In this document: in pieces, positions 56,589 to 57,877 of the stretch | Position numbering within the stretch: position 1 is the first letter of the stretch | Layout of the letters: each line of letters begins with the position of its first letter | From: Alphaproteobacteria bacterium | GTDB taxonomy: Bacteria; Pseudomonadota; Alphaproteobacteria; CALKHQ01 | Assembly (NCBI GenBank): GCA_965227515.1 | Contig: CBDDFZ010000001.1 | Location: 2,464,001 to 2,528,000 of the forward strand | Reading direction: 5' to 3' | DNA: 64,000 nucleotides | Notes under the pieces: generated by a model | What the model was told of the DNA's origin: nothing | The model's database searches: none | What the model saw: the letters and a program-made list of their open reading frames with translations, nothing else | Translations under genes and position numbers: made by a program

Positions 56589-56695
56589 GCCGGGATCAGC
56601 TTACGCTGAATCTGCGCCAGCCCTCTCCCCCACCCGGCCACCCAGCAGGATACTTTCGTGGGTGGCCGGGTGGGGGAGAGCGACTGTCTTTTGTG

Positions 56696-57628
56696 TCAAG
56701 CGTTTTGCCATGGGGTCCGATCTCTGATGATGGCATTGAGGATGATGAGGAGCTTGCGCATGACGGCGACGAGCGCGAGCTTCTTTGGCTTTCCGGCATG
56801 GAGCAGGCGTTGATAGAAGGCCTTGAGGATCGGGTTCCGTTGGCTGGCGACCAAGGCTGCCATGTAGAGGGTTGTGCGCAGATGACGCCGTCCCCCACGG
56901 ATGGTGCGCTTGCCGCGCATGGTACCGCTGTCCCTGTTGAACGGCGCCAGGCCGACGAGGGCAGCGATCTTCTTTCGGTCGAGACGTCCGAGTTCGGGTA
57001 GGTCGGCGATCAGCGCACGGGCGGTGATATCGCCGACACCAGGCACGCTCTTGAGCAGGTCTTCGTCCTCGCGCCAAGCTGGTGTGCCGCGGATCGTCTC
57101 ATCGAGCTCGCGTTCGAGGGCGGAGAGTTCTTTCTGCAGGGCCGCCAGCAGGCGGTCGACGCTCTTGACCATGCGTCGGCTGGTGAGCTGGCTGCGGCGA
57201 TTGCGCTCGGCGGTCATCATGACGACGATCTGGCGCCGGCGGGCGATCAGCTCGCTGAGCACCTGGGTCTGGGCGTCGGCCAGCGGCCGAGGTTCGGGCC
57301 GGACCCGCTCGGCAAACAGCGCGATCGCCTTGGCATCTAGCGCATCGGTCTTGGCAAGCAGGCCAAGGGCACGCGCGAAGTCCCGGATCTGGCGCGGGTT
57401 GACCACGGCCAGCGGCAGTCCGGCAGTGGCCAGCGCCGCTGCCACCGTGACCTCGTAGCCGCCAGTCGCCTCCAGCACGATCAGGCCCGGCGACAGCCCG
57501 GCCAGGTCCTCGACAAGACTTGCCAGAGCATCGCCGTCTCGTGCGACAGCAAAGCTCTGGCCGGACGGCAAGACATGCACGTCGAGCCGCGCCTTCGAGA
57601 CATCAATGCCAACGAAAACCTGTTCCAT
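56696..57628 (-). CDS. IS110 family recombinase/transposase
   Basis: [68 protein letters not shown]. Confidence 0.95.
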
Positions 57629-57795
57629 CACCCGTCCTTGCAAATGCGGTCTCGCACGGCGGACCAAGCGACTGTTCGGGTTCATTGGAACAACGGGCAG
57701 GGTGCCAAGCTCTCCCACGGTCTTCGAGACCAAGGGCCTTGCGGCCTCCCACCCGTCTCCGCCACCGCTACAATAACCGCAGCGGCCACAAAATG
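57629..57795 (-). ncRNA. Predicted IS110 bridge RNA
   Basis: Non-coding end carries segments matching target (GGCCCT; GGGAGAG) and donor junction (ACAGTCGCT; TGCAAG) in IS621-like order; exact RNA ends unknown. Confidence 0.72.
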
Positions 57796-57877
57796 AGATA
57801 CAAGGGCCGGTGAAGATCGACTGAAGAGCGTCCTAGGGTGGCGCAAACGAGAGGTAGGGCAGGGCTCGTCTGTTTTT

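Follow-up and report, generated by a model that had tools for sequence, protein, structure and literature searches.

A predicted bridge RNA matching a REP-like host repeat in an IS110-group insertion sequence of an alphaproteobacterium

We analysed a 64,000-nt stretch of DNA (hereafter the window; positions 2,464,001 to 2,528,000 of contig CBDDFZ010000001.1, assembly GCA_965227515.1) from the GC-rich, two-replicon, 5.5-Mb genome of an alphaproteobacterium, which contains an IS110-family element at 56679-57804 on the minus strand. The element measures 1126 bp with both copies of a CT core counted, or 1124 bp without the duplicated CT, and is present in the genome as four full copies, alongside two left-end relics. 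CT was found at both junctions in all four full copies; in the window copy, the left junction at 57804 reads CACCGGCC-CT-TGTATC and the right junction at 56679 reads GACAGTCG-CT-CTCCCCCA. Long terminal inverted repeats are absent, and TGTATC.. at one end is no inverted copy of ..ACAGTCG at the other. Its left end is 174 nt long and its non-coding right end 17 nt, which places it in the IS110 group, in which the non-coding left end is described as far exceeding the right in length, the reverse holding for the IS1111 group (PMC11208160). The main features of the element are as follows:

56679..57804, minus strand: whole element (four genomic copies, 99–100% identity; junctions read)
57803..57804, minus strand: left copy of the CT core (junction sequence)
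56679..56680, minus strand: right copy of the CT core (junction sequence)
56681..56687, minus strand: left donor, ACAGTCG, the terminal part of the right end (sequence)
56696..57628, minus strand: recombinase gene, 310 aa from ATG (ORF, Pfam, NCBIfam, phmmer)

The predicted protein carries both domains of the family, an N-terminal DEDD RuvC-like domain (PF01548, 79.4 bits against a cut-off of 29) and a C-terminal Tnp domain (PF02371, 78.6 bits against a cut-off of 21.3), and scored 229.6 bits (cut-off 140) with NCBIfam model NF033542, 'IS110 family RNA-guided transposase', in agreement with the family named in the initial annotation, which had been made from the sequence alone. Among proteins of solved structure, the best phmmer match was ISCro4 (PDB 9t56, E = 1.3e-39), and the transposase chains of IS621 matched with E = 6e-37. 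Residues D9, E53, D95, and D98 align with D11, E60, D102, and D105 of the IS621 DEDD motif, the roles of which have been described (PMC11208158), and S234-G235 aligns with S241-G242, which includes the catalytic serine. A longer open reading frame of 345 aa, starting from TTG at 57733, was rejected as the gene, because it would extend into the RNA described below and the proteins of relatives begin at the ATG (MEQ..). The likely Shine–Dalgarno sequence of the recombinase is AAGGA at 57639-57635, located within the right guide and handshake bases of the donor loop.

We then considered the genomic context of the insertions. All four copies share one insertion point in one arm of a palindromic, REP-like repeat (..CC[G/A]GCC-CT-element-CT-CTCCCCCACCC..), and the two left-end relics begin at the same base of the same arm as the full copies, which bears out the earlier proposal of an element programmed against a host repeat and answers its call to inspect the flanks of other copies. 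The restored 18-mer (CACCGGCCCTCTCCCCCA) is identical to an intact arm at 5388-5405 (0 mismatches), as had been read initially, and has 7 matches in the window at ≤3 mismatches against 0.26 expected by chance. Across the genome, 284 arms were identified at ≤3 mismatches on both contigs; 120 palindromic units consist of two inverted arms, with an arm spacing of 24–26 nt in 117 of them. The repeat portions relevant to the window are:

57805..57812, minus strand: left target CACCGGCC, outer part of the interrupted repeat arm (junction sequence)
56612..56678, minus strand: remainder of the interrupted repeat, comprising the right target CTCCC (56678-56674), a loop, and the intact second arm (56615-56632, plus strand) (sequence)
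5388..5463, plus strand: intact (empty) palindromic repeat with one candidate site per arm (sequence matches)

Occurrence as short imperfect palindromes in many genomic copies is one trait of REP/BIME-type repeats. The target repeat is REP-like, its unit being one hairpin-like palindrome, and nothing observed requires the MITE-like family suggested initially. Two matches to the Y1 transposase family PF01797, candidate RAYT genes, are present in the genome. Candidate insertion sites, defined as matches to the 11-mer [G/A]GCC-CT-CTCCC, number 181 genome-wide, nearly all of them in the REP-like repeat, and 161 carry the CCAC continuation of the repeat arm. Two of the four insertions require a G:T wobble at left-target position 4. 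We also considered whether the repeat loop hitch-hikes with the element, given that loop type tracks two sublineages of copies, and rejected this: the sublineages occupy opposite arms (GGCC versus AGCC) of one asymmetric palindrome, so that the same loop is merely read in opposite directions. The genome also carries another IS110-family element, which likewise sits only in particular repeats.

The 174-nt left end shows an IS621-type layout, in which a 5' hairpin is followed by a target-binding loop and a donor-binding loop:

57761..57789, minus strand: 5' stem-loop of the predicted bridge RNA (single-sequence fold)
57694..57755, minus strand: target-binding loop module, with a basal stem (57755-57748 with 57701-57694), an internal loop, and an inner hairpin (57731-57719) (covariation, model R2)
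57630..57681, minus strand: donor-binding loop module, with a basal stem (57681-57678 with 57633-57630) and an inner hairpin (57665-57648) (covariation, model R2)

A covariance model (R2) was built from 31 relatives with 42–58% protein identity, leaving out this element and its nine closest aligned relatives. In the covariance scan that had been proposed at the outset, this independent model matched positions 57624-57759 on the minus strand with 81.4 bits (E = 4.7e-20), the runner-up in the window scoring 9.6 bits. Over 42 sequences, 88.2% of cells were paired, compared with 72.8% in shuffled data and 39–56% in slid controls, and 144 cells showed two-sided changes against 47.5 in shuffled data, neither value being reached by any of 500 shuffles; the structure was supplied by hand for these counts, and about a dozen relative loci lay outside the comparison, with left ends that did not enter the alignment. 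In the basal stem of the target loop, 8 of 10 pairs changed on both sides. Together, the model match and the covariation uphold the loop layout initially likened to that of IS621 bridge RNAs. Comparative support for the 5' stem-loop was weak, with 81% of cells paired across 10 sequences versus 31–73% in slid controls.

Other approaches gave less decisive results. Folding of the left end as a single sequence (z = −2.07) produced a partly different loop pairing and is not decisive alone, and RNAalifold on the raw MAFFT alignment recovered only the two basal stems, with the inner hairpins misaligned. A scan of the region against Rfam 15 returned no bridge-RNA family at threshold; the only family aligning to it was RF02234 (sX15), on the opposite strand and with 31.4 bits (E = 0.007) against a gathering score of 55, the remaining matches being miRNA models responding to palindromic repeats. 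The sX15 family, a Xanthomonas sRNA that was described together with asX7 as an antisense pair (PMC3300014), is not annotated as a bridge RNA family; its reverse-complement consensus displays the scaffold motifs of both a donor loop and a target loop.

Four guides and two handshake positions were assigned within the two loops:

57733..57738, minus strand: left target guide GGCC+CU, in top-strand sense, pairing with the bottom strand (sequence; clade positions −2 to −5)
57710..57716, minus strand: right target guide GGGAG+AG, complementary to CT+CTCCC (sequence; clade pairing)
57667..57675, minus strand: left donor guide ACAGUCG+CU, with the same sequence as the element's right end (sequence; clade matches)
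57637..57645, minus strand: right donor guide AUUUGCAAG, facing CT+TGTAT (sequence; conservation in relatives)
57708..57709, minus strand: target-loop handshake guide CU, of which C pairs with donor position 7 (G) (clade pairing)
57635..57636, minus strand: donor-loop handshake guide GA, of which G pairs with target position 7 (C) (clade pairing)

The motifs singled out in the initial annotation, namely GGCCCT (57738-57733), GGTCT-CGA-AGACC (57731-57719), GGGAGAG (57716-57710), ACAGTCGCT (57675-57667), and TGCAAG (57642-57637), all lie on the minus strand exactly where they had been placed, and the second hairpin that it noted between the donor guides lies at 57665-57648. Matches of the left target, right target, left donor, and right donor guides in this element extend over 6, 7, 9, and 6 nt, respectively. 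In 100,000 mononucleotide shuffles of the left end, each guide motif occurred in 0.05–8% of sequences, and two or more together in 0.6%; the occurrence of all four in the correct order around two hairpins is far beyond chance.

When compared in a fixed register with each element's own right flank, the right target guide matched at 5/5 positions in 25 of 32 elements (31 relatives and this one) and at ≥4 positions in 30, while only 0.1% of non-cognate pairs were perfect (0/10,000 permutations); the flanks of two relatives (L051 and L080) did not fit their own guide. Relatives with very different flanks (GAACA, TTCTG, AAATC, TGTTA) carried a matching right guide at the same position of the model. 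The left donor guide was identical to the element's own right end, found independently via the TTGAC box, in 26 of 30 cases (0/10,000 permutations), with donor-guide variants tracking right-end variants among relatives. The ends themselves (ACAGTCG/TGTAT) are common to the closest relatives, contrary to the suggestion that this element has a donor specificity of its own. As for the right donor guide, TGCAAG was correctly positioned by the initial annotation, but its supposed single wobble is no peculiarity of this element, as the G is found in 37 of 42 aligned relatives. Pairing here is probably discontiguous (CAAG + AU), as described for IS621 (PMC11208158), the alternative being UGCAAG with one G:T wobble.

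The left target guide is short. Its GGCC (matching 57805-57808 within the left target) covers 4 of 7 non-core positions, next to the CT core, and the distal CAA (positions 1–3) matched none of the 181 candidate sites. Left-target positions −2 to −5 matched in the clade at frequencies of 0.68–0.94 versus 0.42–0.61 in shuffled data (0/500 shuffles), positions −6 and −7 matched no better than chance, and only five left-target positions covaried. In IS621 screens, mismatches were poorly tolerated at all nine non-core positions (PMC11208160).

These observations raise the possibility, which we regard as less likely than not, that the RNA guides account for only part of target choice, with the short 4+2 left guide being supplemented by a recombinase that recognises the folded REP-like palindrome or other repeat features. 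Besides the idle distal positions, every insertion falls within a palindromic unit, and the arrangement would resemble that of ISPpu10 from Pseudomonas putida, for which a stem-loop 5' of the left target is reported in a 2026 preprint to act as a second specificity determinant (10.64898/2026.03.19.712850); ISPpu9 and ISPpu10 are also IS110-family elements with several copies, all within one host REP family (PMC12288879). The geometry differs, however, the partner arm of the palindrome being located 3' of the right target here, and the guides span an 11-bp site (4+2+5), which may suffice in a genome of this size. Moreover, since most candidate sites share the CCAC continuation of the arm, natural data cannot separate sequence from structure. 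Supplementary recognition of this kind would modify guidance by a bridge RNA rather than replace it.

Handshake bases, a concept introduced for IS621 (PMC11208158), were scored on alignment columns. The target-loop base paired in 32 of 32 elements, including three U:A covariants, and the donor-loop base in 25 of 32. In this element, the two positions give C:G and G:C pairs with non-cognate DNA, and neither base clashes with the cognate DNA.

Joining of the two ends of the element allowed us to deduce a circle junction, GACAGTCG-CT-TGTATC, that would bring together two halves of a putative promoter:

56694..56699, minus strand: −35 box TTGACA of the right end, which shares bases with the TGA stop codon (sequence; conserved in relatives)
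57795..57800, minus strand: −10-like hexamer TATCTC in the left end (sequence)

The two boxes would come to lie 17 nt apart only after circularisation. Of the 6 bases of TATAAT, TATCTC keeps just 3, and the final T is not among them. Relatives conserve CTTGAC of the right end and TGTAT of the left end with constant spacing, and in 27 of 32 junctions TTGAC precedes the donor 7-mer by 7 nt. A promoter and terminator scan of the linear (integrated) locus, which does not extend to the circle junction, returned no promoter-like site, and expression of the integrated form may therefore be very low.

Taken together, these data make it very probable that the element is a complete, and probably active, IS110-group insertion sequence moving by bridge-RNA-guided recombination in the manner of IS621 (Durrant et al. 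2024, PMC11208160; Hiraizumi et al. 2024, PMC11208158). By analogy with IS621, it would excise as a circle, whose junction (right end, CT, left end) would place TTGACA 17 nt from TATCTC; the resulting promoter would yield an RNA of ~160–175 nt transcribed from the left end. The donor loop of this RNA would then hold the circle junction and its target loop the repeat arm, while the DEDD/Ser recombinase would exchange strands at the CT core, aided by one handshake base beside each right-hand guide. Such a guide-directed cycle would confine insertion to the approximately 180 copies of [G/A]GCC-CT-CTCCC. Our data establish the anatomy, the site specificity, the catalytic residues, and the covariation of structure and guides among relatives, whereas transcription, RNA ends, circle formation, protein–RNA binding, and present-day activity are inferred.

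Present-day activity is probable. An unlikely alternative is that of a recent fossil, with guides and gene that look intact in an element immobile in this host owing, for example, to a weak junction promoter or a missing host factor; the poor −10 box, the occupation of only 4 of about 180 candidate sites, and the copy loss evidenced by the two relics would fit such a scenario. Against it, the copies on contigs C2 and C1, which lie in different flanks, agree at each of the 13 variable positions and are identical over 1126 bp, the catalytic residues are kept, and the recombinase frame is open in all four copies with no internal stops. The three differences among copies that fall within the RNA preserve its structure (U.G to C-G or the reverse in two cases, and one hairpin-loop base). 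In addition, a near-identical element (~99%) was found in assembled contigs of sequencing runs labelled as two other organisms, where its left end abuts the same repeat arm followed by other outer flanks (similarity breaking at 57812). The sequencing runs on record for this sequence include no RNA run, and the assembled contigs of four runs contained neither a circle junction nor a clean empty site; one joint that skips 1233 nt, which does not coincide with the ends of the element, was read as a repeat-driven assembly join. In a plasmid collection, the closest sequences reached 69% identity over most of the element and bore no name other than 'IS110 family transposase'.

That the left end is a mere 5' UTR and recombinase-binding end, with the protein alone recognising the repeat and the complementarity arising by coincidence or as a by-product of GC-rich repeats, is highly implausible: GGCC, CCC, and GGGAG are indeed low-information motifs in a GC-rich genome, and the left-guide 6-mer alone appears in 8% of shuffles, but right guides follow unlike flanks at one model position, donor-guide variants follow right-end variants, handshake U:A covariants exist, and RNA guidance has been shown experimentally for IS621 (PMC11208160).

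The closest known systems include IS621 of E. coli. The two elements share a DEDD RuvC-like domain and a Tnp domain with catalytic Ser, the CT core, a long left and short right end, and a left-end RNA, predicted in the present element, consisting of a 5' hairpin, target loop, and donor loop. Further common features are left guides that read as the top strand and right guides that complement it, a single handshake base that follows each right guide and pairs with non-cognate DNA, a 9-nt right donor guide opposite 7 donor bases, a right-end −35 and a left-end −10 (putative in the present element) that only circularisation would unite, REP-type repeats as insertion sites, and a natural G:T wobble at left-target position 4 (in IS621 the target has A and the guide encodes G). 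In contrast, the recombinases are only distantly related, the target is GGCC-CT-CTCCC here and ATCAGGC-CT-AC in IS621, and target pairing amounts to 4 (5 in the clade) + 2 + 5 instead of 7 + 2 + 2. A 7-bp right target guide, described as an engineered improvement in IS621, is native here; the right end has only 17 nt of non-coding sequence, with the stop codon within the −35 box; and the donor loop ends 3 nt ahead of the recombinase start codon. ISCro4 (IS622-type; 10.1101/2025.05.14.653916), the closest relative of solved structure by sequence, has the same domain order and catalytic residues in the protein comparison but belongs to another host group and carries other guides.

This element is a clear case, though an ordinary one, of a mechanism reported in 2024, and adds little new for the field: thousands of such bridge RNAs were reportedly predicted in that year, and NCBI already labels the protein family 'RNA-guided transposase'. 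Its bridge RNA can nonetheless be read directly from raw sequence, offering an annotated natural system with guides, handshake bases, a putative junction promoter, and about 180 natural landing sites. Possibly useful features include the native 7-bp right target guide, the five covarying left-target positions, and the overlap of the donor loop with translation start. As annotation, it explains why this element and the second IS110-family element sit only in particular repeats. A more speculative and rather doubtful reading is that the clade runs a shifted target code, read from ~5 bases of the left target (4 in this element), the CT core, and 5 bases of the right target, in which distal left-guide positions are idle and specificity is topped up by the folded REP palindrome, and that in alphaproteobacterial members the donor right guide (..CAAGGA..) doubles as the ribosome-binding site of the recombinase, with RNA folding or recombinase–RNA binding throttling translation. 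If this were true, one 174-nt left end would serve as guide, promoter half, and autoregulator.

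On the sequence-level features tested, the initial annotation was correct in reading the IS110-family insertion sequence at 56679-57804 (minus strand, 1126 bp with both copies of its CT core; hereafter the element) as a bridge-RNA element, and the feature is real: junction promoter aside, all the sequence features that define an IS110-group bridge-RNA element are present. Read on the minus strand from 57804 to 56679, it runs in the order ..CACCGGCC-CT-TGTATCTC.., a 174-nt left end, the recombinase ORF, and ACAGTCG-CT-CTCCCCCACCCGGCC.., with the following parts:

57628 (ATG) to 56696 (TGA), minus strand: recombinase ORF, 310 aa
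57738-57733, minus strand: left target guide GGCC+CU, facing GGCC-CT
57716-57710, minus strand: right target guide GGGAG+AG, facing CT-CTCCC
57675-57667, minus strand: left donor guide ACAGUCG+CU, facing ACAGTCG-CT
57645-57637, minus strand: right donor guide region AUUUGCAAG, facing CT-TGTAT
57709 (C) and 57636 (G), minus strand: handshake bases; the C pairs with donor G and the G with target C, with no cognate clash

The recombinase contains the domains PF01548 (DEDD_Tnp_IS110, 79.4 bits) and PF02371 (Transposase_20, 78.6 bits), scores 229.6 bits against NCBIfam NF033542 ('IS110 family RNA-guided transposase'), and matches the solved structures of the ISCro4 (E = 1.3e-39) and IS621 (E = 6e-37) transposases. 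Its residues D9, E53, D95, D98 and S234-G235 align with D11, E60, D102, D105 and S241-G242 of IS621, the roles of which are described in PMC11208158. A 345-aa ORF starting at TTG 57733 was ruled out as the gene, as relatives begin at the ATG.

No Rfam 15 family reached threshold over the left end of the element. Scanning one genome per species yielded 80 loci of relatives (41–75% protein identity) from Alphaproteobacteria, Chloroflexota, Burkholderiales and others; excluding four partial proteins (L049, L074, L081 and L082) left 76 loci with 75 distinct upstream sequences, and the upstream alignment comprised 41 relatives plus the element (42 sequences). Outside it stood same-genome duplicates and several loci that do not count as negatives, including L043/L047, L058, L063/L064, L070 and L084. 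These named loci (41–54% protein identity) may be decayed copies or have a different RNA layout: upstream of L043/L047 and L063/L064 a donor-loop-like motif is present with no alignable target loop, and at L058 and L070 the anchor motif was not found at the expected place.

Across the 42 sequences, both a target-loop scaffold (..AGACCG - loop - GGTCnnnnGACCG - loop - AGC..) and a donor-loop scaffold (..CCCGAACAGTYGC - hairpin - CGnAT..GCAAGG..GGG) are conserved. The tested structure was drawn from the element's own fold and scored over 893 cells, 88.2% of which held standard pairs (72.8% when shuffled), with two-sided changes in 144 cells (47.5 when shuffled); none of 500 shuffles reached the observed value of either measure. 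Sliding the partners by 1–3 columns gave 39–56% paired, although a member-derived structure tends to outscore its slid versions on this percentage, a bias from which two-sided changes are free. Such changes occurred in 8 of the 10 pairs of the target-loop basal stem; the 5' hairpin of the predicted bridge RNA is only weakly supported. A covariance model (R2) trained on 31 relatives of 42–58% protein identity, with the element and the nine aligned sequences most closely related to it left out, independently found the left end at 57624-57759 (minus strand; 81.4 bits, E = 4.7e-20; runner-up in the 64-kb window, 9.6 bits). A further model, R1, matched only the four copies of the element genome-wide (107–113 bits), among which the RNA region differs by one U.G to C-G change, one C-G to U.G change and one hairpin-loop base.

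On the opposite strand, the Xanthomonas sRNA family sX15 (Rfam RF02234) aligns at 57622-57762 (plus strand) with 31.4 bits, below its gathering threshold of 55, and in reverse complement its consensus carries both the donor-loop motif CCCGAACAGUUG and the hairpin of the target loop. sX15 and asX7 were originally described as an antisense pair that has 10 homologues in Stenotrophomonas (PMC3300014); asX7 could be a bridge RNA that has gone unrecognised, and sX15 its antisense partner.

The host genome (G000; contigs C1 and C2, 4.07 and 1.45 Mb) carries four full copies of the element at 99–100% identity, all inserted at the same point of the repeat arm (..CC[G/A]GCC-CT-IS-CT-CTCCCCCACCCGGCCACCCA..). 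As first claimed, the restored 18-mer is identical to window positions 5388-5405, one arm of the intact palindrome 5388-5463. Genome-wide, the 21-nt repeat arm occurs 284 times at up to three mismatches, and 120 inverted-arm pairs are present, 117 of them spaced by 24–26 nt; there are 181 occurrences of the site [G/A]GCCCTCTCCC, of which 161 continue into the repeat arm. The palindrome is asymmetric, with a GGCC arm and an AGCC arm, each type hosting two copies. The four copies vary at 13 positions and form two pairs; those on C2 and at C1:3321402 are identical throughout, yet their flanks differ. Contigs from runs labelled as two other organisms carry the element at ~99% identity, with its left end adjoining the same repeat arm and different outer flanks beyond; neither a circle junction nor a clean empty site was found in the assembled contigs of four runs.

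Two left-end relics also start in the repeat arm, at exactly the position where the full copies do. One (C1:3870892-3870943) retains 52 nt at 100% identity and adjoins a deletion in which the remainder of the repeat was lost as well. The other (C1:1500199-1500289; 91 nt, 82% identity) carries a left guide of slightly different sequence, CATGGCCCT, sitting in CACTGGCC-CT, with a target match one base longer than in the full copies.

PF01548 matches in the genome total 27. Another IS110-family element, ~1.45 kb long (e.g. C1:392228-393678), has 21 further matches at 89–100% identity, and in the ten copies with flanks read its right end adjoins a different REP-like repeat, GCC[CT]GG[GA]TG...CCCGGG; a third IS110 type has two copies. 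Two matches to PF01797 (Y1 transposase family; C1:2017088-2017375 and C1:1603908-1604246) could be REP-associated transposases. Immediately upstream of the element lies a long inverted repeat of high GC content (window 57898-58087). Plant miRNA-precursor models match it on both strands (27–29 bits), and it looks like another palindromic repeat family.

Since the target guides match as listed, the matched site comprises 4+2+5 = 11 bp. The left target guide proposed initially stands for GGCC+CU, which matches the repeat arm; its distal bases CAA find no match at any of the 181 genomic sites, which have ACC or GCC there, and by the clade pattern one of the three (position -5) would be expected to pair. 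Two insertions require a G:T wobble at left-target position 4, where the natural IS621 target also departs from its guide (PMC11208160). On the donor side, TGCAAG had been read as one wobble away from TACAAG. The G of UGCAAG is kept in 37 of 42 aligned sequences and, because the IS621 right donor guide is discontiguous (nine RNA bases pairing with seven donor bases; PMC11208158), pairing as CAAG plus AU appears no less likely than an uninterrupted 6-mer that includes a wobble.

Guide tests covered 32 elements (31 relatives and the element), with both boundaries set without the target loop: the left boundary was taken at the CTTGTA start and the right one at the donor 7-mer preceding CT. Of 37 elements selected, five were excluded (L061, contig stopping 3 nt past the right end; L067 and L068, without left flank; L071, right end not found; L090, not alignable). 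The right target guide, defined as the five bases before the invariant AG, showed perfect pairing to the five cognate bases on the right side of the core in 25 of 32 elements and pairing at four or more positions in 30, the misfits being L051 and L080; 0.1% of 950 non-cognate pairs were perfect, and none of 10,000 partner permutations reached the observed sum. Flanks as unlike as GAACA, TTCTG, AAATC and TGTTA were each matched by a complementary right guide. The left target guide was compared over 53 insertions representing 31 distinct loops: the match frequency at positions -2 to -5 was 0.68–0.94 against 0.42–0.61 when shuffled (0/500 each); position -1, almost invariably C, is uninformative, and -6 and -7 lie at background. 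The left donor guide equalled its own right end exactly in 26 of the 30 elements (of 37) in which that end could be located independently, as the 7-mer seven bases past TTGAC and before CT (permutation, 0/10,000), and the variants ACGGTCG, ACGGTTG, ACAATTG and ACAGTCA covary between guide and right end. In line with the handshake-base concept (PMC11208158), the right target guide is followed by a base pairing with donor position 7 in 32/32 (29 C:G, 3 U:A), and the right donor guide by one pairing with target position 7 in 25/32.

A promoter scan of the linear locus gave no promoter-like sequence, and no RNA sequencing run was found to contain the element. Circularisation, as inferred, would bring TTGACA (56699-56694), which overlaps the stop codon, to a distance of 17 nt from TATCTC (57800-57795), a weak -10 with 3/6 matches. 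Of 32 junctions, 27 have TTGAC seven bases ahead of the donor 7-mer and 28 have TGTAT after the core. A junction promoter has been described for IS621 (PMC11208160), and one of this kind is predicted for the element. For integrated IS621, weak bridge-RNA expression and excision by the same complex are reported in a 2026 paper (PMC13626964).

The study of Durrant et al. (PMC11208160), in which 85.7% of the IS110 elements in ISfinder were predicted to have bridge RNAs, analysed thousands of orthologues with at least 20% identity to IS621, and the element falls inside the sequence space already covered there; its closest plasmid-borne relatives (≤69% identity) are annotated just as 'IS110 family transposase'. 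It differs from IS621 in its target, in the division of target pairing (4(5)+2+5 versus 7+2+2), in its very short right end, and in a donor loop that adjoins the start codon. The donor-loop basal stem stops 3 nt before the recombinase ATG (57626-57628), and AAGGA (57635-57639, minus strand) lies within the right donor guide/handshake position, 6 nt upstream of it. This layout is common to the nine closest relatives; in the Chloroflexota, by contrast, relatives carry a separate GGAGG, located further downstream. From this spacing we infer that the right donor guide probably doubles as a ribosome-binding site in this subgroup.
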